Origin: Rhodospirillales bacterium
Lineage (GTDB): Bacteria > Pseudomonadota > Alphaproteobacteria > SMXQ01
Assembly (NCBI GenBank): GCA_018666775.1
Contig: JABIXC010000011.1
Location: 12,881 to 76,880 of the forward strand
Length of the DNA: 64,000 nt
Reading direction: 5' to 3'
Of the stretch, positions 5,199 to 43,885 are shown piece by piece. The notes beneath the pieces were generated by a model. The model was not told the DNA's origin, searched no databases, and worked only from the letters and a program-made list of their open reading frames with translations. The position numbers were made by a program, and so were the translations under genes. Within the stretch, counting starts at the first letter, position 1, and every line of letters starts with the position of its first letter.

Positions 5199-5933
5199 AT
5201 GGCCTTCAAAAGCTGGAGAGGAACAGTCGGCATGATCAAACCGACGCGCCGTCCTGGATCACTGGAAGAGTTGATCCGCATGTTGCCAGAAGGCATTGGG
5301 GTTATCCCCCTGTTCCTGAGCATCAATCAGGGCACGACCGATGAATTCAAACGTGCGGTTGAACCCTTTATCCCATTGCTGGATGAACTAGCCGAAGAAG
5401 AAGTCGATCTCATGCATCCCGAAGGGGCACCGCCTTTCATGCTGTTGGGGTTTGATGGCGAAGCGGAACTGATCAAAAAATGGGAAAAACGCTACAACAC
5501 GCCCATTTTCACCTCTGGCACGAACCACGTCACGGCGCTGCGTGCCTTGAAAGCCAAAAAAATTGTCGGTGCAACGTATTTCACCGGTGAGATTAACAAC
5601 ATGTTTGGCAACTACTTCAAAGAGGCCGGATTTGATGTGCTGGCCATGGAAGGCATCGACCAGCCCTTTGATAAAATCGGGCAACTGTCTTCGGAACAGG
5701 TCTATGCCCACGTCAAGGAAATCGCCCTGAGATATCCCGAAGCCGATGCGGTTTACCTGCTGGGTTCGGGCTGGCGTGTGTTGCCGGTGATCGATATTCT
5801 GGAACAAGACCTGGGCATTCCCGTCGTCCATCCAGTGCCCGCGCGGTGCTGGGAAATCCAGAAGCGCCTGAACGTTCACCAACCGGTTGAAGGCTTTGGC
5901 TATCTTCTGGCTGAAATGGTCGACATGGACTAA
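5199..5933 (+). CDS. Asp/Glu/hydantoin racemase superfamily protein (arylmalonate decarboxylase / maleate isomerase-like)
   Basis: 244 aa, the length and fold pattern of the AMDase/maleate-isomerase family. The usual catalytic Cys pair is not obvious. Confidence 0.55.
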   Translation: MAFKSWRGTVGMIKPTRRPGSLEELIRMLPEGIGVIPLFLSINQGTTDEFKRAVEPFIPLLDELAEEEVDLMHPEGAPPFMLLGFDGEAELIKKWEKRYNTPIFTSGTNHVTALRALKAKKIVGATYFTGEINNMFGNYFKEAGFDVLAMEGIDQPFDKIGQLSSEQVYAHVKEIALRYPEADAVYLLGSGWRVLPVIDILEQDLGIPVVHPVPARCWEIQKRLNVHQPVEGFGYLLAEMVDMD

Positions 5934-5981
5934 ACCTACCCGGCCGGGGCAACCCGGCTGGATTATTCTGGAGAACACAGC

Positions 5982-6434
5982 ATGGCCGGAAAAGGGTTTA
6001 CCCCAACAGGCATCCTTCATTTTGCCATTGGTGTTGGTGATCTTGATGAAGGCCGTCGTTTTTATGAAGACGTGCTTGGCTGCACCTATTTGCGCCAAAA
6101 CGATTCCACTGTTTTCTTTCAGGCAGGGGATCAGTATTTCGTCCTGACCAATGCAAAAAACCACACGCCCCCCAATCCGCCCGGGGAATATGAATTTCAC
6201 CATGCCTTTACCGTCGAAGGTGATGGCTTTGATGATGCATTGAAATATGTCGAAGAACAGGGCTATCCCATCTTGATCTATGAAGAAGAAGGCCACCGCA
6301 CCTTCACCGGACGCCACGCCTATATTCAGGACCCGTGGGGAAATTCAATCGAGCTCATCGATTTCCACGGCATCGGCGATTTCTCACGGCCCGATTTTCA
6401 AGGCCGGCAACGTCGCCAGAAGACAGCAGAGTAA
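5982..6434 (+). CDS. VOC family protein (glyoxalase / extradiol dioxygenase fold)
   Basis: A 150 aa protein with the LHFAIGVGDLDEGRRFYEDVLGC beta-alpha-beta-beta-beta motif. Confidence 0.75.
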   Translation: MAGKGFTPTGILHFAIGVGDLDEGRRFYEDVLGCTYLRQNDSTVFFQAGDQYFVLTNAKNHTPPNPPGEYEFHHAFTVEGDGFDDALKYVEEQGYPILIYEEEGHRTFTGRHAYIQDPWGNSIELIDFHGIGDFSRPDFQGRQRRQKTAE

Positions 6435-6440
6435 AAAACC

Positions 6441-7301
6441 CTAATCGGGCAATCCGGCCATCTTTCGCACAGCACCGGGGCTTAAACCCTGATCGCGGAA
6501 ATGCCTCAGGCTCAAGGCATCATTGCGCTTGGCAAGGCGCACCCCGGCACTGTCCTCGATCATGGGGTGATGGTAATATTCGGGCACATCCAACCCCAAC
6601 AAGGCCTGCAAAACCCGGTGCAGATGGGTGACAGGGAACAGATCAATGCCCCGGGTCACCAAGGTCACACTTTGATCTGCATCATCAACGGTGACACTTA
6701 AATGATAACTGGTGCCAATATCCTTACGCGCCAGCACCGCATCCCCAAACTGATTTTGATCCACCGCAATGGGGCCACGTTCCCGTTCAACAAATTCTAG
6801 CGGCCCAACCAGCCCCGCCGCCTTCTCCGCATCCAGACGCATGGCATGCTCAACGCCTGATGCCATACGAGTTTGGCGTTCCCCATCACTGAGTTTCCGA
6901 CACGTGCCGGGATAATCGATTAATCCATTTGAATGGGGCGCATCTGAATGGGGGGCACTGGCGGCGCGCTCAATCTCGGCATTAATTTCACGACGCGTGC
7001 AAAAGCAGGGATAAAGCACGCCCAAGCCTTCAAGCGTGTCCAAGGCGGCGCGATAGGCTGGATGCCTGGAATTTTGGCGCATCACCGGGGTTTCCCATGA
7101 AAGCCCCAACCAGGCCAGATCTTCAAAAATTGCTGCCTCAAAGGCATCGCTGCACCGGGTAATATCAATGTCTTCAATGCGCAGTAAAAACTGGCCCCCG
7201 GTTTTTTGGGCAATATCATGGGCAAACAGGGCCGAATAGGCGTGGCCCAGATGCAAATATCCCGTCGGCGATGGGGCAAATCGGGTTGTTTCGGGGTTCA
7301 T
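6441..7301 (-). CDS. gluQ: tRNA glutamyl-Q(34) synthetase (GluQRS)
   Basis: RFAPSPTGYLHLGHAYSALFAHDIA (a HIGH-type class I motif) and a ~286 aa length typical of truncated GluRS paralogs. Confidence 0.85.
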   Translation of the reverse strand: MNPETTRFAPSPTGYLHLGHAYSALFAHDIAQKTGGQFLLRIEDIDITRCSDAFEAAIFEDLAWLGLSWETPVMRQNSRHPAYRAALDTLEGLGVLYPCFCTRREINAEIERAASAPHSDAPHSNGLIDYPGTCRKLSDGERQTRMASGVEHAMRLDAEKAAGLVGPLEFVERERGPIAVDQNQFGDAVLARKDIGTSYHLSVTVDDADQSVTLVTRGIDLFPVTHLHRVLQALLGLDVPEYYHHPMIEDSAGVRLAKRNDALSLRHFRDQGLSPGAVRKMAGLPD

Positions 7302-35699: not shown

Positions 35700-35776
<77 letters not shown>

Positions 35777-35909: not shown

Positions 35910-37061
35910 TTAGCCCGAAGAACGGTTCAGGGTCTCTTCGCTTGAACAAGTCTCAAGCTTGCTCAGCAGGTATTCCAGACTTTCTTCATCGATGGGGATT
36001 GCGCCGCCTTCTTTGTTTTCAAAATGGGTCAGAACGCGTTCCAGCATCCGGCGACGGAACCGCTCACGATCATATTTTTCACCGTCATAGCCCATTTCCT
36101 CAGCAACCTTTACGCCCACCAAGGTCGCAGGCAACAATTCCTTGCCCAAGCCTGCCTTCCCCCATAATGCCTGCAGACCCAGCTGTCCTTCGTCATGGAT
36201 TAGAATCTGGGCATTGATCAACGAGATTTTGGCAAGATGGGCGAGGGATGATTCAAAAAAGGCAATATCGCCCATGCAAAGCGCCCTGAAGATGATCGAA
36301 TCTGTCAGGCGATTACTTTCCGACAGGCTTTCCACCAAAGACGTCACTTCGCCGATGCCAAAACGGGGGTCCACAAGCCCCAATGTCGCCCGTTCGCGCA
36401 CCTGAAGCACCAAATCTGCGGTATGATCGGGGGCTCCTTCGCCTTTATCTGCAAGAAGCGCTTCCAGGCTGGTTGTCACCATCGTGACCAACCGCTCGGC
36501 GATGTTGATGGGCACATGAGGGCGCCGGGTTACGGCTGTCGAAATTTCTTCCGAGTCACCAAACCGATCCAGGGCCCGCGCCAGGGTCGTTTCCCTGACA
36601 TCAGCAGTGGTATTATGCATCAAGGTTGCGACTGTTTTTTCATTGCCTTGCTCAACCAGCGTATCGGCAACATTGGCTGAAATGCCTTCGCGCCGGGCAA
36701 TGGCATTCTGTTTGTCTTCCCCTGTGGTCATAACAATTTCGATCAAATCCTGATCGGTCAGGATTTCCGAAAATTCCAAAACAGGGATCGCCACAGAATC
36801 AACGTCTTTAGCCAAACTCAGTGCCAATTCATGGGGGATATCGGGACATTCTTTGAGATGGTCAGAAAGGGCTTGGCGCACACGAATTTCCGCATCCTCG
36901 ACCATGATCGAGAAAATTTCGAGCGCCATACCCCGTTCTTCTTCATTGAAAGTTTCTGCCTGGAACTGACCAGCCATCTTCTCAACCGTTTCCACCCGGG
37001 CTTCGGGGGATGGATCAGTTAGCAGACGCTCAACATCCTGTGCAGTAAGACGATCGACCAT
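35910..37061 (-). CDS. DUF2336-like helical-repeat protein
   Basis: A 383 aa acidic alpha-helical repeat protein. The family assignment is tentative. Confidence 0.45.
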   Translation of the reverse strand: MVDRLTAQDVERLLTDPSPEARVETVEKMAGQFQAETFNEEERGMALEIFSIMVEDAEIRVRQALSDHLKECPDIPHELALSLAKDVDSVAIPVLEFSEILTDQDLIEIVMTTGEDKQNAIARREGISANVADTLVEQGNEKTVATLMHNTTADVRETTLARALDRFGDSEEISTAVTRRPHVPINIAERLVTMVTTSLEALLADKGEGAPDHTADLVLQVRERATLGLVDPRFGIGEVTSLVESLSESNRLTDSIIFRALCMGDIAFFESSLAHLAKISLINAQILIHDEGQLGLQALWGKAGLGKELLPATLVGVKVAEEMGYDGEKYDRERFRRRMLERVLTHFENKEGGAIPIDEESLEYLLSKLETCSSEETLNRSSG

Positions 37062-37290
37062 AAAACCTCACATATTAGAGCAAGCGGAAGCCGTCATTCT
37101 TCAAACTTCGAAAACGGCCCCCACCCCAGGGAAAATCGTTCCCGTCTATTCGGATTTTCTATTGTCAGGGGAACCTGTTAACCAAGCCTTAATATCAATC
37201 TCTAGGCCCCTGCCACAAAATGGCCAAAAATGTATGGCCTCTGTTGAATTGCTTGGCCGAAAGTGATACTGGAACACCAGCAAATTCGGG

Positions 37291-37306
37291 AAGCGGCATG
37301 CCGCTT
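37291..37306. promoter_or_regulatory. perfect 16-bp palindrome AAGCGGCATGCCGCTT in the divergent promoter region upstream of the cytochrome c gene
   Basis: Read directly. It lies 77 bp upstream of the cytochrome c start. Confidence 0.25.
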
Positions 37307-37382
37307 ATCAGTGGGGGTGGTCCTCTCTGGGATAACCCCCGGTAATTTCAGTTCTAAATTACAGTTCAAGGAGATGAACAAC

Positions 37383-37760
37383 ATGGCTAAATTTCGTTTT
37401 TTATCGGCATTACTGGCACTTGGCATTGTGTTTACAGGCACCAATGCAATTGCCGCAGGCGATGCCGCCAAAGGCAAGAAGGTCTACAAAAAATGCGCCA
37501 TCTGCCATTCGACCAAAGCTGGCAAGAATAAAATCGGCCCGAGCCTTCATGGCATATTTGGGCGCAAGGCTGCCAAGGGCAAGGGCTTTCGCTATTCAAA
37601 GCCGATGAAAAAATCCGGCCTGACCTGGGATGCAGCCACCCTCGACAAATTCCTTAAAAAGCCCCGCAAAGTGGTCAAGAAAACACGGATGACCTTCCCC
37701 GGCCTGCGTTCTGCATCTCAGCGCGCTGACGTTATTGCGTATATCAAATCGCTTAAGTAA
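37383..37760 (+). CDS. class I cytochrome c (c2/c550-like)
   Basis: Signal peptide, GDAAKGKKVYKKCAICH (CXXCH), GPSLHGIFGRKA and MTFPGL. The start was taken at the ATG 8 nt after AAGGAG. Confidence 0.9.
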   Translation: MAKFRFLSALLALGIVFTGTNAIAAGDAAKGKKVYKKCAICHSTKAGKNKIGPSLHGIFGRKAAKGKGFRYSKPMKKSGLTWDAATLDKFLKKPRKVVKKTRMTFPGLRSASQRADVIAYIKSLK

Positions 37761-37825: not shown

Positions 37826-38593
37826 CTAACCCAGAACGGCCCGTATTCGATCAACTCGGTCCGGCACGGAAATCATCTTATACGATGTAACCTCCAGGGT
37901 GCGATCTTCAAAGACCGTTGGGGCGGAACCGTCTTCTGCCGGGGCTGGGACCCATTTTTCAACCACCCCATCGCGCTCTTTGATCAAGGCGGCAATTTCA
38001 AATGCATACAAACGAACCATGGCGTTTAACCACCGATTGACCGGCCAGGATGGTTGGGCATGGGTGATTTCAAACATCCCGGTTAGTTCGATGACATCCT
38101 CACCTTTATACCAAATCTCGCCCGTGACCCAACGGTTGGTCGTGAACAAGCAAATCGGCTCACCCGCTTCATTCATGGAAATTCCAATGAGATGACTGAG
38201 CGCGTCAGTGGGATCATCCGGCATTTCAAAATCAGTTACCTCGGCCGGGCTCACATGATCAGGCATGCCTGCGGGACGCATAAATGTATGGAAATGCCCG
38301 TGTTCGCCAACCCTTAGATCAGCCGGATGCGCATGATAGAAAAACTGGCTGCCGCTATCCTTGTCATAGACATCGCCATCGGGATAATGATTCCATTCGT
38401 AAAATGTGCCCTTATCGCGCAGCAATTCACCGACGACATTGTCCCCGGTCTTTGCCAACACCGCCTTGATTTCCAGCGCCGTTTCACCCGCAACCCGCAT
38501 TTTTTCAAGGGCGTCACGGTCCAGTTGTTCAAGAGCCACATCGAAGGCGCTTTCTTCAATGTTATCTGCCTTATCTGCTGGTTTTACCACCAT
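37826..38593 (-). CDS. conserved hypothetical protein with a His-rich motif (FYHAHPADLRVGEHGHFHTF), possibly metal-binding
   Basis: A 255 aa ORF with no confident family assignment. Confidence 0.5.
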   Translation of the reverse strand: MVVKPADKADNIEESAFDVALEQLDRDALEKMRVAGETALEIKAVLAKTGDNVVGELLRDKGTFYEWNHYPDGDVYDKDSGSQFFYHAHPADLRVGEHGHFHTFMRPAGMPDHVSPAEVTDFEMPDDPTDALSHLIGISMNEAGEPICLFTTNRWVTGEIWYKGEDVIELTGMFEITHAQPSWPVNRWLNAMVRLYAFEIAALIKERDGVVEKWVPAPAEDGSAPTVFEDRTLEVTSYKMISVPDRVDRIRAVLG

Positions 38594-38775
38594 GATGCCT
38601 TGCCTTCATGCCATTACAAATACAGTCACTCGGGTTTTAAACACGCCCATCCCCTTTGAACAGTGCCGGGAACGCAGATCACGAATTTGTGACCCATTGT
38701 GCATTTTACGACGTTAAATCAAACGATAGGATTATGTCATACACTGGTTGCACATAAAAAAATGAGGATAAATTT

Positions 38776-39765
38776 ATGAAAACCTACCGCGATGGATTGC
38801 TTTCCGGCACCGTGCTTTCTGCCATCATTGGACTTTCCGGTTTTGGGATCAGTATTGGGATGGCCACCAATGCCCAAAGTGCTGGTCTGAACCTGCCCGC
38901 CCAACCCCGTGCAGAATCGACCCTGGTTGCGGCAAACAACCCCTGTAATCCCTGTGCCGCAAAAAATCCATGCGCGGCTAAGAACCCCTGCGCCGCTAAG
39001 AACCCCTGTGCGGCTAAGAACCCCTGTGCGGCTAAAAATCCCTGCGCCGCGAAAAACCCCTGCGCCGCGAAAAACCCGTGCAACCCGTGTGCCGCAAATC
39101 CATGCAACCCCTGTGCAGCAGGCGCATCGGCCAAAGCATCCAACTGTTTTGTCCCACGCCTGACAAAGGCCAAGGCCAACCCCTGTGCAGCCAAAAATCC
39201 CTGTGCCGCTAAAAATCCCTGTAACCCCTGTGGGGCCAAGAACCCTTGCGCCGCATCCGATGACATCGCAGTTTCCAATGCCGAAGCCGTCAAGGCTTAC
39301 GCCTGCATCAGGCCTGTGTTGCAAACAGCCTATGGCAAATCAGGAAATTCAGTCGCGCTGGCCTATACGAAATGGAAAGATTACAGCGCGGTCCCCTATC
39401 CATCATCCACCCATGGCGGCCGCTTTGTTCGCAACTACGCCAACCCCAAGGGGGCCAATTACGGAAAATTTGAAAAGTCCGGGATCATGCCCCAGGGCAC
39501 GGTTCTGGCCAAAGACAGTTTTTCGGTTACCAAAACCGGTGCCGTCGCCCCCGGCCCCTTATTCTTGATGGAAAAAATGGGCCGTGGCTTTAACAAGGCA
39601 TCGGGAAATTGGCGCTACACCATGATCATGCCCAATGGGACAACATTCGGCGTTACCAAAGGCAAAAATTCGGCCGGAATGAAATTCTGCACCGAATGCC
39701 ACGCGGCTGTCGGTGAAAATCAGGATCACATGTTCTTCCTTCCCGAAGAATTCCGATCAAAGTAA
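38776..39765 (+). CDS. cytochrome P460 / cytochrome c'-beta family haem protein with an N-terminal Cys-rich (NPCAAK)n tandem-repeat region
   Basis: Signal peptide, about 17 NPC units, then a C-terminal domain with QGTVLAKDSFSV, GNWRYTMIMP, a CTECH haem site and DHMFFLPEEF. The P460 match is from memory. Confidence 0.7.
   Translation: MKTYRDGLLSGTVLSAIIGLSGFGISIGMATNAQSAGLNLPAQPRAESTLVAANNPCNPCAAKNPCAAKNPCAAKNPCAAKNPCAAKNPCAAKNPCAAKNPCNPCAANPCNPCAAGASAKASNCFVPRLTKAKANPCAAKNPCAAKNPCNPCGAKNPCAASDDIAVSNAEAVKAYACIRPVLQTAYGKSGNSVALAYTKWKDYSAVPYPSSTHGGRFVRNYANPKGANYGKFEKSGIMPQGTVLAKDSFSVTKTGAVAPGPLFLMEKMGRGFNKASGNWRYTMIMPNGTTFGVTKGKNSAGMKFCTECHAAVGENQDHMFFLPEEFRSK
38935..39255 (+). repeat. coding 18-bp tandem repeat array (AAR AAY CCN TGY GCN GCN), about 10 units in two blocks
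   Basis: Read directly. The units differ mainly at synonymous positions. Confidence 0.9.
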
Positions 39766-40293: not shown

Positions 40294-42873
40294 TTATTTC
40301 TTGATTAAGCGCGCGCGCCGACGCTGCAAAACAACAACGCCCCCCAACAACAACAACGCCAGAATAAACATCCATTCCTTTGATGGACGATCAACAGGGA
40401 CACTGACCGAACGAACCAGCCACCCTGCCTGCAAGCCTGCTTTTTCCGCCGAAGACCCGAAACCAACACTGGCAACACGCACACCATCGGGGCCAGCATT
40501 AATGCGAAGCCCGGCACCCTGAAGACGCTTTTTTGCCGACTGTTTTCTGCCCATGGGCAAAACGACAGACCGGGAAACAATGCCGCCGGTCGCTTTTTCA
40601 CCCCGAGCCAGAAGCCGTAGAAAACCATCATCTGGCAATGATCCCGCAATCTTTTCTAGTTCCACTGCCGGTCGGGCCTGATAGGGCGGATAAACCTCAT
40701 CCCAGAAAAATCCGGGCCTGAACAGGGTAAAGGCCACCAGAAATAGCACCGCGGTTTCCCAGAGACGGCTTTTGGTCATAAACCAGCCCATGGTCGCGGC
40801 CGCAAATACCAGCATAGCAATAAACGCACTGGCCACGGTTAAGACCAGATGCCAACCCCCATCAATGCCGATCAAAAGAATTTGGGTATTGAAGATAAAC
40901 AGGAAGGGCAAGGCAATGGTCCGGGCAGAATAGAAAAATGCCTGAATGCCGGTTCGAATGGGATCGGCACCGGATATGGCCGATGCCGCAAAGGTGGCAA
41001 GGCCAACAGGCGGCGTCACATCGGCCATCAATCCAAAGTAAAACACAAATAAATGCACCGCGATCAACGGCACCATCAACCCGCCCTGGGCAGCCAATGC
41101 CACCACCACCGGTGCCATCAAGGTGGCGACCACAATGTAATTGGCCGTGGTTGGCAAGCCCATGCCAAGGATAAGGCTGATGATGGCGGTGAACACCAGC
41201 ATCAAAACCAGATTGCCGCCGGAAATTAATTCGACAAATTCTGTCATGACAAGGCCAAGCCCGGTCAACGTGACGGCACCAACCACGATGCCCGCCGTGG
41301 CCGTGGCAATGGCAATCCCCACCATGTTCCGCCCACCGGAAACCAGCCCGGCCACAAGATCCCCAACACTGGCAGAAAACGTATCGCCCCAGGAAACTCG
41401 GCCCGTCGCGAACAGCATTTGCAAGGGCCGCTGGGTCAGTAAGATGCCAATCAGGCAAATGGTCGCCCAAAAGGCGCTTAGCGACGGAGAGAACCGCTCT
41501 ATCATCAGGCACCAAACCAAAATCACCACGGGGATCAAATAATAAAGCCCGCCCTTTACTGTTTCGCCAAGGGGTGGCAATTGGGCACCAATGGGCGCAT
41601 CCGCTGCCGGCTGGGGATAGCGCGATGCAAGCCGCAACAGCCCCAAATACGCCCCAAGTAAGATGGCCCCCGCAACCCAGGGCAGTGCATCACCCAAAAG
41701 CCCACGGGTCCAGGCCAGCCCCCAGTAAATGGCACCGGAAAAAGCCAGCACGCCTGAAAGAATCAGGCCATTGGAAATGACCCGGTCCCGCCCGCGAAGC
41801 CTGCCCTCGTGGCGAGGCAAGCCCACAAGCCCGGTTTTCACCGCCTCCAGATGCACAATGTAGAGAAGGGCTGCATAGGAAATGATGGCGGGCAAAAATG
41901 CGTGTTTGATCACCTCGATATAGGGAATCCCCACATACTCGACCATCAAAAATGCAGCCGCCCCCATAACCGGCGGCATGATCTGTCCGTTGACCGAAGA
42001 GGCAACTTCTACCGCCCCGGCCTTATCTGCCGGAAAACCAACCCGCTTCATCAGTGGAATGGTGAATGTGCCGGTGGTCACCACGTTGGCAATGGAAGAC
42101 CCCGAAATCAGGCCCGTTAATCCAGAAGACACCACCGCCGCCTTGGCCGGCCCACCGCGCAGATGGCCCAACCCCGCATAGGAAACGCGAATAAACCATG
42201 CGCCCGCCCCAGCGCGTTCCAGCAACGCGCCAAACAACACAAACAGGAATACAAAATTGGTGGAAACGCCCAAAGCCACCCCAAAGACGCCTTCACTGGA
42301 AAGCCATTGGTGCGACATGGTCTTGGCCAGCGATGCACCCTGATGGGCGATCACCGCAGGCATCCACGGCCCGGCAAACCCATACCCCAGAAAGACAATG
42401 GCAACAATTGCCAGCGGCAGCCCCAATGCGCGCCGGGTGGCTTCCAACAGCAAAACCATGCCCACCGAAGCAATTGCGATATCGGTCAGGATTGGCGCCC
42501 CCGGACGCGATGCCAACGCATCCTGAAAAACAAGAATATAAGCCGCAGCAGATGCCGCCAGAATAGCCAGCACCCAGTCTATCACCGGCACCCGGTCGCG
42601 GGGCGAATGCGCACTGGCGGGGAATGCTGCAAAGGCCAGTAAAAGCGCGAATGTTAAATGGGTTGATCGTGCTTCTACAAAATTCAGATTAAAGACGCCA
42701 AACACAAATGGCAGCGGGGATGCATACCACAGCTGGAACAAAGACCACCCAAGTGCCAGAGAAAACAAAACCCGTTCAGCCATGCCCTTTGGTGCCCGCG
42801 CACCACTATCTGCGGCATGGACCAGTTCATCGACACCAGAACCGGGATTTGTTGTTTCTGTAGTTTCCGTCAT
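40294..42873 (-). CDS. TAXI-type TRAP transporter fused permease (DctQ-DctM fusion) with a C-terminal extension
   Basis: An 859 aa polytopic protein adjacent to a TAXI receptor. The roughly 150 aa C-terminal tail ends in a transmembrane helix. Confidence 0.85.
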   Translation of the reverse strand: MTETTETTNPGSGVDELVHAADSGARAPKGMAERVLFSLALGWSLFQLWYASPLPFVFGVFNLNFVEARSTHLTFALLLAFAAFPASAHSPRDRVPVIDWVLAILAASAAAYILVFQDALASRPGAPILTDIAIASVGMVLLLEATRRALGLPLAIVAIVFLGYGFAGPWMPAVIAHQGASLAKTMSHQWLSSEGVFGVALGVSTNFVFLFVLFGALLERAGAGAWFIRVSYAGLGHLRGGPAKAAVVSSGLTGLISGSSIANVVTTGTFTIPLMKRVGFPADKAGAVEVASSVNGQIMPPVMGAAAFLMVEYVGIPYIEVIKHAFLPAIISYAALLYIVHLEAVKTGLVGLPRHEGRLRGRDRVISNGLILSGVLAFSGAIYWGLAWTRGLLGDALPWVAGAILLGAYLGLLRLASRYPQPAADAPIGAQLPPLGETVKGGLYYLIPVVILVWCLMIERFSPSLSAFWATICLIGILLTQRPLQMLFATGRVSWGDTFSASVGDLVAGLVSGGRNMVGIAIATATAGIVVGAVTLTGLGLVMTEFVELISGGNLVLMLVFTAIISLILGMGLPTTANYIVVATLMAPVVVALAAQGGLMVPLIAVHLFVFYFGLMADVTPPVGLATFAASAISGADPIRTGIQAFFYSARTIALPFLFIFNTQILLIGIDGGWHLVLTVASAFIAMLVFAAATMGWFMTKSRLWETAVLFLVAFTLFRPGFFWDEVYPPYQARPAVELEKIAGSLPDDGFLRLLARGEKATGGIVSRSVVLPMGRKQSAKKRLQGAGLRINAGPDGVRVASVGFGSSAEKAGLQAGWLVRSVSVPVDRPSKEWMFILALLLLGGVVVLQRRRARLIKK

Positions 42874-42883
42874 TATCCGGAAA

Positions 42884-43885
42884 CTACATCATGCCCTTTT
42901 CCTTGAAGTAACGGGCAGCCCCATCATGAAGCGGGGCAGAATTGCCGTCTTTGGCAAGGCGTTTCGGATCAAGATGACCAAATGCCGGATGCAATTTTTT
43001 GAACGCGGCAAAATTATCAAACACTGATTTGACCACATGATAAATGATATCTGCACTGGTCCGGGTCGATGCAACAAAGGTGGCTTTCACCCCAAACGTT
43101 GGAACGCCGCTGGCATTGCCCTTGTACATGCCGCCAGGAATGGTGGCCTTGGCATAATAGGGTGCCTTCGCAACCAATTTATCAATGGCAGCCCCTGTTA
43201 CCGGGATCAATGCCGTATCACAGGCTGTGGTTGCTTCCTGGATCGACCCATTGGGATGGCCCACCACATAAACGATGGCGTCCACCTTGTTGTCACACAA
43301 TGCCTGGGACTGTTCCGCAGGCTTCAATTCTGATGCCAGGGAAAAGTCCTTCGCGGTCCAGCCCATGGCACCCATAACAACTTCCATGGTCGCCCGCTGG
43401 CCAGAACCGGGATTGCCGATATTCATACGCTTGCCTTTAAGGTCCCCCAACGTCTTGATGCCAGAATCGCGGCGCGCCACCAGGGTAAAGGCCTCAGGGT
43501 GGACGGAAAACACCGATCGCAATTCTTTGAAAGCGCCCGATTTTGCAAATTTCGAACTGCCCCGTGATGCGTGATATTGCCAATCTGACTGGGCGATGCC
43601 CATATCCAGGTCACCGGAACGAATGGCATTGATATTATAAACCGATCCCCCGGTGCTTTCGACCGTGCACCGCACACCGTGTTCCTTGCGCCCCTTGTTG
43701 ACCAACCGACAGATTGCACCGCCTGTGGGATAATAAACACCAGTCACACCACCGGTGCCAATGGTCACAAATTTCTGGCCGCCCTGATTGGACCCGCCGT
43801 TCATATTCAGCCCGCCGCCAAACAGAGCCCAAGCCCCAACAGCAACGATTGCGACAATAATGATGACAACAACATTCTTATTCAT
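42884..43885 (-). CDS. TRAP transporter solute receptor, TAXI family
   Basis: Signal peptide and the TAXI fold motifs ([19 protein letters not shown]). Confidence 0.85.

Follow-up and report, generated by a model that had tools for sequence, protein, structure and literature searches.

An old and selected cysteine-repeat array in a cytochrome P460-family protein of a marine alphaproteobacterium

Introduction

Cytochromes P460 convert hydroxylamine to nitric oxide (NO) and N2O, and they have so far been studied as small single-domain enzymes of nitrifiers and methanotrophs. In P460 sensu stricto, a lysine (Lys70 in NeP460, Lys78 in McP460) is cross-linked to the porphyrin, the ferrous form has a Soret band at ~460 nm, and a distal proton-accepting carboxylate (Glu96/Asp102) is required for oxidation of NH2OH. 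Lys70, the haem cross-link residue of N. europaea P460, separates P460 from c'-beta (PMC11928373, Table 2); the c'-beta proteins McCP-beta and TtCP-beta have Phe or Met at this position. The 2025 review of P460s mentions neither repeats nor N-terminal extensions (PMC11928373). Here, we describe a gene in a 64-kb stretch of contig JABIXC010000011.1 from a Rhodospirillales bacterium (the whole stretch is referred to below as the window). We regard its product as a P460-family cytochrome with a previously unreported Cys-repeat module, encoded by an array of 18-bp units at positions 38935-39255 of the + strand.

Like NeP460 and McP460 (PF16694), the window protein has just one CXXCH, located near its C-terminal end, and a Lys at the Lys70 position; it is probably exported to the periplasm, where those two proteins reside. 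Its haem domain is only 17-22% identical to solved P460 structures. Unlike characterised P460s, it has a Cys-repeat region of ~110 residues and an apparently docked spacer in front of the haem domain, and its host is a non-nitrifying marine alphaproteobacterium. It differs from c'-beta in that the cross-link position is an invariant Lys throughout the family.

Results

The array encodes a protein repeat that is old and under selection

The array lies within a single gene, whose relevant parts are as follows.

38776..39765, + strand: gene for a 329-amino-acid (aa) exported Cys-repeat cytochrome P460-family protein (PF16694; at least 1492 homologues)
38935..39120, + strand: Cys block 1, residues 54-115, with 12 Cys (AlphaFold2 predicted local distance difference test score, pLDDT, <50)
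39121..39177, + strand: spacer GASAKASNCFVPRLTKAKA, residues 116-134, with Cys124 (conserved CFVPRL; predicted to be structured)
39178..39255, + strand: Cys block 2, residues 135-160, with 5 Cys (pLDDT <50 for residues 143-158)

An earlier note on this DNA had described an 18-bp array in two blocks, and this description is borne out. The degenerate unit AARAAYCCNTGYGCNGC (AAR AAY CCN TGY GCN GCN), which encodes KNPCAA (Lys-Asn-Pro-Cys-Ala-Ala), has eight exact matches in the window, all on the + strand between 38962 and 39254. The chance expectation is 0.00, and none of 100 dinucleotide-preserving shuffles gave a match. Tandem Repeats Finder reports 7.3 copies with a period of 18 at 38950-39081 (85% matches), and a second 18-bp run of 2.3 copies at 39181-39222. 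In the reading frame, the array corresponds exactly to residues N54-A160 and contains 17 Asn-Pro-Cys (NPC) codon triplets, from 38938 to 39249, in two blocks. It is composed of eight perfect KNPCAA units, four xNPCAA variants with C or A at position 1, and NPCNPC half-units. Block 1 consists of NPCNPCAA, six consecutive KNPCAA, KNPCNPCAA and NPCNPCAA; block 2 consists of ANPCAA, KNPCAA, KNPCNPCGA and KNPCAA. The note had placed a Cys-rich spacer between the two runs of units. This is correct for the first part of the intervening DNA, which encodes further NPCNPC half-units, but not for the 19-residue GASAKASNCFVPRLTKAKA that follows, which has a single Cys.

Units were expected to differ mainly at third codon positions; for the perfect units, they do so exclusively. 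The eight KNPCAA units have seven distinct DNA versions, so they are not recent identical copies. Variation is found in all six third-codon columns and in no other column, and all 91 pairwise differences (91/91) are synonymous changes at codon position 3. The probability that six variable columns of 18 would all be third positions by chance is 1/18564. Mean pairwise DNA identity between identical-peptide units in the window is 0.824, as compared to 0.821 for random synonymous codons drawn from the repeat's own codon usage, and the corresponding values for 59 homologous genes are 0.844 observed and 0.843 expected. There are 3.25 differences per unit pair at ~4 synonymous sites per unit, which is saturation, and non-synonymous change is zero. 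Because differences are synonymous only, and unit identity equals the random-codon level, we conclude that the KNPCAA peptide, above all its Asn-Pro-Cys core, is under purifying selection, and that the arrays are old, with synonymous sites between units fully randomised. The proposal of a selected protein repeat rather than recent slippage is thus upheld, both in the window and across the homologous genes. Only two adjacent pairs look recent: the unit at 38998 is identical to the one at 39016, and there is a 1-nt difference between the units at 39034 and 39052. Hence, some unit turnover continues.

Unit number is stable in this organism and variable in the family

A public assembly collection has the exact 329-aa protein in 42 index blocks and on at least 22 contigs, and six independent assemblies (one each from Logan, NCBI and JGI, and three from ENA) agree base for base across the array. 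The assembled unit count is therefore reproducible, and the assembly collapse feared in the earlier note finds no support in this window. The copy-number change that it also anticipated is seen in relatives. Locus L081, the closest relative, has 97% nucleotide identity to the window in the haem domain, where 13 codons differ synonymously and 2 non-synonymously. Six units are absent from its array: 54 and 36 nt are missing from block 1, and 18 nt from block 2, all multiples of 18. Across the family, members have between 3 and 49 NPC motifs. Copy number evolves as whole 18-bp units are gained or lost in frame.

In the L081 gene, codon 48 is an in-frame TAG, and one NPC is changed to NPS. At this locus (5585-6466; 6697-7236), a resolvase gene lies directly downstream, at the place of the window's Usp gene. 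Possibly L081 is a copy that was inactivated recently where a rearrangement took place; alternatively, a sequencing error could explain the TAG.

About 12 of 80 contigs from relatives, which are short-read metagenome-assembled genomes, end within the array, and three have N-gaps there. The contig end is at the start of the locus in L004, L006, L007, L010, L019, L020, L022, L028, L055, L065 and L074; the N-gaps are in L067, L070 and L073. Because contigs break in the array, family members are often truncated in databases; for example, P0001 is called as a 199-aa fragment. Thus, the array is real and stable in this organism, yet it is a common contig-breaking point in related metagenome assemblies.

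The repeat is attached to a predicted P460-fold haem domain

The remaining parts of the protein are the N-terminal segment and the C-terminal haem domain.

38776..38874, + strand: N-terminal export segment, residues 1-33 (MKTYRD, a hydrophobic core, then TNA), read by eye
39256..39762, + strand: cytochrome P460/c'-beta fold domain, residues 161-329, predicted with AlphaFold2 and Foldseek
39511..39513, + strand: Lys246, invariant and aligned with NeP460 Lys70 (K87 in alignment A1, K246 in alignment A3)
39688..39702, + strand: CTECH haem c motif (Cys305, Cys308, His309), invariant in A1 and A3

The C-terminal 170 residues are predicted to adopt a P460/c'-beta fold, with CXXCH and an invariant Lys at the cross-link position. 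Pfam model PF16694 (Cytochrome_P460) matches residues 199-320 with 33.7 bits, the gathering cut-off being 27; some homologues score slightly under the cut-off. AlphaFold2 gives a pLDDT of 89 when the domain (last 170 residues) is modelled alone and ~97 for the domain in the full-length model, and the top 9 Foldseek matches in PDB are all P460 or c'-beta (E down to 2e-6). Of the 120 top homologues, 119 have the CXXCH ~25 residues before the C-terminal end. In a hidden Markov model (HMM) alignment, Lys246 (VLAKDSF) aligns with high posterior probability to the K of GTVTVKELV in 8gar_A. Glu266 (FLMEKM), which is near-invariant, is a candidate for the distal carboxylate; in the sole sequence alignment obtained, Glu96 of NeP460 is part of a 9-residue insertion.

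The N-terminal segment has a basic stretch followed by a 24-residue hydrophobic stretch, and a K-x-x-LL-x-TV-x-P pattern is conserved (alignment A3). Read by eye, and given its conservation in the family, it is probably a signal peptide or a membrane anchor. Both Cys blocks are predicted to be intrinsically disordered regions in the N-terminal half of the protein. In the full-length AlphaFold2 model, spacer residues 121-130 have a pLDDT of ~89 and form one strand and one helix.

A protein search identified at least 1492 homologues of the 329-aa protein, mostly from marine Alphaproteobacteria, and at least 509 species-representative genomes encode a relative of the haem domain. From these genomes we kept 80 loci, nearly all from uncultured marine Alphaproteobacteria (Rhodospirillales, Kiloniellales), the best match being 68% identical. 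The family layout is an export segment, Cys block 1, a spacer with the motif C-x-[VI]-P-R-L (found in most complete homologues), Cys block 2, and a haem domain that starts with an invariant Cys (A-Y-D-C). Relatives without repeats also lack the spacer with its Cys, as well as the Cys of the haem domain (Cys177, A-Y-D-C). Such a repeat-less haem domain occurs as a 195-aa protein in Kiloniella laminariae (L049 and L066, 5908-6495), and repeat-less tandem paralogues lie just upstream of the repeat-bearing gene at six Kiloniellaceae loci (e.g. L029 4516-5169).

The repeat region of the window protein is 16.8% Cys. For the family, the repeat region is 24% A, 21% C, 16.5% P, 15% N and 9% K, with 0.0% His and Trp and almost no Asp, Glu, His or aromatics. 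The commonest inter-Cys unit is CNPC, which has CxxC spacing (1204 occurrences), and CAAKNPC is next. Of the proteins counted, 45 have an even number of non-haem Cys and 43 an odd number. Since even and odd counts are nearly equal, a fully paired disulfide scaffold is unlikely, and we rejected an obligate all-disulfide scaffold.

Neither Pfam nor NCBIfam has a model for the NPC repeat, and NCBIfam has none for the window protein, for DUF6969 (see below) or for the stand-alone NPC protein. Pfam matches of homologues to zf-CXXC, Cornifin, Amelogenin and Plasmodium_HRP are composition artefacts. Literature searches for the repeat peptide, for DUF6969 and for P460 with Cys-rich repeats yielded nothing relevant.

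NPC repeats are found on many other proteins

Searches with the repeat region alone returned 361 proteins and 230 representative clusters. Some are small stand-alone proteins with a signal peptide and repeats (Motiliproteus, Onishia, Nitrosomonas). Others are SoxA/TsdA-like cytochromes c with N- and C-terminal NPC tails (Marinobacter, Oceanisphaera, Motiliproteus). The repeat is also present on TPR, LysM, PDZ, OmpA, YHS and AhpC-TSA proteins and on one BufA1 bufferin precursor (P0172). Among 104 non-P460 NPC proteins of at least 140 aa, 34 have a SoxA-TsdA cytochrome c domain, and 15 of these also match CCP_MauG. The haems of SoxA and TsdA are Cys-ligated, and the SoxA/TsdA-type NPC proteins have a Cys ~40 residues past CXXCH (QxCM). 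Strict conservation of the NPC core extends over Alpha-, Beta- and Gammaproteobacteria and Nitrospinae.

In Gamma- and Betaproteobacteria, we observed an operon that encodes a small secreted NPC protein, then an NPC-cytochrome c-NPC protein of the SoxA/TsdA-like type, and usually then DUF6969 (L172 5001-6848; L175 5001-7041; L174 5001-6008; L088 7112-10676). The neighbours of these operons include genes for AhpC-TSA, thioredoxin and DsbD, cytochrome c', an NrfA-like cytochrome and Sulf_transp.

A DUF6969 gene is a recurrent neighbour

The elements surrounding the coding sequence, and the two genes upstream of it, are as follows.

38764..38768, + strand: Shine-Dalgarno-like GAGGA, 7 nt before the ATG, read from sequence and conserved in L081-L087
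39798..39820, + strand: terminator-like hairpin of 10 pairs (8 G-C) followed by a T run, between the gene and the convergent Usp gene
38737..39324, - strand: antisense open reading frames (ORFs) 38737-39324 and 38784-39293, judged spurious
37826..38593, - strand: DUF6969 gene, 255 aa, without signal peptide and with seven invariant His (PF22308, E = 2e-77)
37263..37760, + strand: class I cytochrome c gene (PF00034)

With GAGGA before the ATG, and a strong hairpin and T run after the stop, the repeat gene looks monocistronic; it is divergent from the DUF6969 gene. A promoter scan of the 182-nt divergent intergenic region found nothing. The two antisense ORFs exist on the - strand as the earlier note had listed them. 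We share its judgement that they are spurious because all coding evidence is on the + strand, where the frame is preceded by a Shine-Dalgarno sequence, encodes a Pfam domain, is followed by a terminator and has more than 1000 homologues. The antisense ORFs are best seen as by-products of the stop-free periodic codon pattern.

DUF6969 lies within ~4 kb of the gene at 22 of 76 P460-type loci. Conversely, an NPC-repeat ORF is found within 4 kb at 17 of 80 DUF6969-centred metagenome loci, and at 10 of the 32 with adequate flanks. DUF6969 is also 0-1 genes away, on the same strand, for five of seven sampled NPC genes from other taxa and with other architectures; three of these five are operons of a small NPC protein, an NPC-cytochrome c and DUF6969. 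In one case, DUF6969 is directly upstream of a bufA1-NPC/MNIO/HvfC/DoxX operon. The DUF6969 genes beside NPC genes elsewhere are at L089 3620-4351, L090 6555-7253, L172 6147-6848, L173 5579-6322 and L175 6340-7041. Hosts of such pairs are Alpha- and Gammaproteobacteria, and the partners are P460-type, SoxA-like cytochrome c, bufferin precursor and stand-alone proteins. We consider DUF6969, which from its sequence appears to be a single-domain cytoplasmic protein, a candidate partner of the repeat protein. A profile search of PDB found no sequence relative of DUF6969, and a literature search found no mention of it. Part of the alphaproteobacterial link to DUF6969 may be inherited synteny, in which DUF2336, cytochrome c and TRAP genes travel together; the gammaproteobacterial pairs of DUF6969 and NPC genes are less easily explained in this way.

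A gene for an FGE-sulfatase-like protein with a signal peptide (PvdO/EgtB-like by NCBIfam) is co-directional with and beside DUF6969 at 40 of 80 loci, and tblastn detects an FGE-like gene at 23 of 80 P460-type loci. Examples are at L002 2788-3678 (-) and L133 345-1256 (+). The 64-kb window contains no FGE-like gene. Long ORFs had raised the suspicion of FGE-DUF6969 fusions, which proved to be only open upstream frames. We also rejected an obligate operon partner because no neighbour family is universal: when the neighbours at 77 loci were clustered by blastp, none of the families exceeded 14 loci. Involvement of an MNIO at this locus was likewise rejected, since tblastn with the L089 MNIO, HvfC_N and DoxX found nothing in the window or at 170 other loci.

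The class I cytochrome c gene recurs beside the DUF6969 or P460 gene at 10-17 of 80 loci, and its product is a possible redox partner. Its start is ambiguous (a GTG ORF of 165 aa as opposed to 125-128 aa in other assemblies), and it is convergent with DUF6969. The syntenic backbone shared with the closest relatives includes a TRAP fusion of DctM and DUF3394 (859 aa; 40294-42873, -), an NMT1_3-type binding protein gene (42884-43885), a DUF2336 gene (35910-37061) and a tRNA (35703-35776), all on the - strand. An Rfam scan of the window found three tRNAs only.

Discussion

What is the functional significance of a selected Cys repeat on a haem protein? On balance, we favour a model in which the repeats are selected arms with a multi-thiolate function on an exported P460-fold haem protein. 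The repeat cysteines would be functional groups, and the blocks would be flexible multi-thiolate arms in the periplasm. The spacer would pack on the haem domain, and Cys124 would probably pair with Cys177, so that block 2 would be closed into a loop and block 1 would be left as a free arm. The cysteines would act as reduced thiolates, with unit number setting the capacity of the arms. Thioredoxin/DsbD and AhpC-TSA occur as neighbours or fusions of NPC proteins, and this association fits thiols that are kept reduced. We tentatively propose soft-metal binding, most likely of Cu(I) and metallothionein-like, as the single most likely chemistry. Cu(I) is ranked first because of the metallothionein-like composition, the BufA1 and YHS fusions, the stand-alone secreted forms and the thiol-reductase neighbours. 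In our ranking, metal binding is only slightly ahead of a thiol or redox carrier; Cys modification comes next, and a pure spacer is least likely.

Several points weigh against this model. The P460 assignment combines a weak sequence match (33.7 bits; PDB HMM E = 0.09) with a predicted structure. The Lys246-haem cross-link is putative, and its alignment with Lys70 takes residue 96 of 8gar_A to be Lys70 of mature NeP460 (an offset of 26). Most units of the window protein have one Cys per six residues, an arrangement that resembles a cluster less than that of classical metallothioneins does. In an oxidising compartment such as the periplasm, the CNPC pairs may be no more than disulfides. The repeat is most often fused to reactive c-type haem domains, which points at least as much to haem-linked thiol chemistry as to metal storage. 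Lastly, the strict conservation of N-P-C-A across phyla and the recurrence of DUF6969, a partner that is probably cytoplasmic, suggest recognition by an enzyme, for which a passive metal sponge has no need.

An alternative explanation, possible but doubtful, is that the thiol arm serves the attached haem. The cysteines could be nucleophiles or redox carriers, as in SoxY, and CxxC pairs may store and relay electrons. The haem would oxidatively conjugate a small molecule to Cys: NO+ derived from NH2OH or NO on a P460 haem, with thiosulfate or sulfane sulfur as candidates for SoxA/TsdA-like haems. Consistent with this, the SoxA/TsdA-type fusion is the most frequent outside P460 (34/104, 15 with CCP_MauG), the QxCM Cys kept ~40 residues after CXXCH recalls the Cys-ligated haems of SoxA and TsdA, and neighbours include cytochrome c', NrfA-like cytochrome, Sulf_transp, rhodanese, AhpC-TSA and thioredoxin/DsbD. 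Attack of a nucleophile on the P460 {FeNO}6 intermediate has been described (PMC11928373), and we count this in the same direction. However, many NPC proteins are stand-alone or carry the repeat on non-haem domains (LysM, TPR, PDZ, OmpA, BufA1), and the existence of repeat-less P460 paralogues and orthologues indicates that the haem domain has no need of an arm. It is rather unlikely, although compatible with both metal binding and a thiol arm, that N-P-C-A is a recognition site at which Cys is modified by DUF6969 before export, by a periplasmic FGE-like protein, or by both; by analogy with MNIO-modified bufferins and EGKCG oxazolins, the modified residues might then bind metal. Precursors with signal peptides and repeated Cys are known MNIO substrates (PMC12452194). 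The strict conservation of the NPC core in Alpha-, Beta- and Gammaproteobacteria and Nitrospinae would be expected for a recognition site, DUF6969 and NPC genes are found near each other (22/76 P460 loci, 17/80 DUF6969 loci and 5/7 other NPC genes), DUF6969 has seven invariant His, and an FGE-like gene is beside it at 40/80 loci. Nonetheless, adjacency is partial (~20-35% in the alphaproteobacterial sets) and may in part be inherited synteny, and the window has no FGE-like, MNIO, DUF2063 or DoxX genes. The FGE motif CxPxR is also absent, since the repeats have C-N-P-C-A or C-A-A-K-N and the spacer has C-F-V-P-R, which is CxxPR, and DUF6969 has neither a sequence match in PDB nor a literature.

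It is improbable that the repeat is purely structural, either as a stalk that holds the haem domain off the membrane, like that of cytochrome c_y, or as a disulfide cross-linker, like SPRR or keratin-associated proteins. The repeat is predicted to be disordered, lies between a hydrophobic N-terminus and a folded domain, and is highly variable in length; Ala, Pro and Lys are abundant, and Pfam Cornifin/SPRR models match some members. These properties would suit a spacer or cross-linker, but every residue of the hexapeptide is conserved and NPC is near-invariant, beyond the need of a length spacer. Moreover, the parity of the Cys number is random (45 even, 43 odd), repeats that form C-terminal tails or stand-alone secreted proteins have nothing to link, and block 2 is between two structured elements rather than beside an anchor. 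Recent slippage or an assembly artefact, with no selected function, is effectively refuted. One identical adjacent pair, another that differs by 1 nt, and the frequent breaks in relatives' contigs are what this explanation has in its favour, against seven DNA versions of one peptide, identity at the random-codon level, six identical assemblies and at least 1492 conserved proteins.

We would not call it likely, but the NPC repeat could mark an undescribed, widespread periplasmic system with DUF6969 and often an FGE-like protein, in which the cysteines are enzymatically modified or are multi-copy covalent carrier arms for the attached reactive haem. If so, the window gene is the alphaproteobacterial P460 version of the NPC system. 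Among P460s, a clade of at least 1492 proteins keeps the Lys at the cross-link position and has up to 39-49 NPC motifs, which suggests that the haem has a different physiological role or a built-in partner. The repeat recurs on reactive haem proteins and on a copper-chelating precursor, beside the uncharacterised DUF6969, and is hence a testable entry point to periplasmic thiol and metal chemistry.

How does the NPC repeat compare with known Cys-rich systems? Oxazolins (Buf_EGKCG) and bufferins, which are MNIO-modified, RiPP-like copper binders, likewise have a short repeated motif with one Cys and one Lys per unit, and their Sec signal would be matched by the probable export segment of the window protein. 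As in NPC proteins, their Cys counts are variable and sometimes very large, and some units are fused to other domains. Unlike oxazolins, NPC proteins have the motif KNPCAA or CNPCAAK rather than EGKCG, and DUF6969 as a recurrent neighbour. Unlike bufferins, P460-type NPC genes have no MNIO, DUF2063 or DoxX genes nearby, and Pfam and NCBIfam searches find no DUF2282/BufA1 or EGKCG signature in the window protein. The SoxY arm (GGCGG), together with SoxAX, resembles the non-P460 NPC proteins in that a flexible Cys peptide goes together with a haem domain of the SoxA type. We saw no sox genes. SoxY is a folded carrier with one Cys; in NPC proteins, the Cys are many, and the disordered repeat that bears them is fused in cis. 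The composition of the NPC repeat is of the metallothionein type, with high Cys, CxxC, few aromatics or His, and low complexity. Metallothioneins and the NPC repeat both have 17-21% Cys and CxxC spacing, are rich in Lys, have no aromatics or His, and are disordered without metal, a property that is predicted for the repeat. In contrast to metallothioneins, to which it has no sequence relation, the NPC repeat would be periplasmic, is a strictly periodic, Pro-containing unit, and is fused to a predicted haem enzyme.

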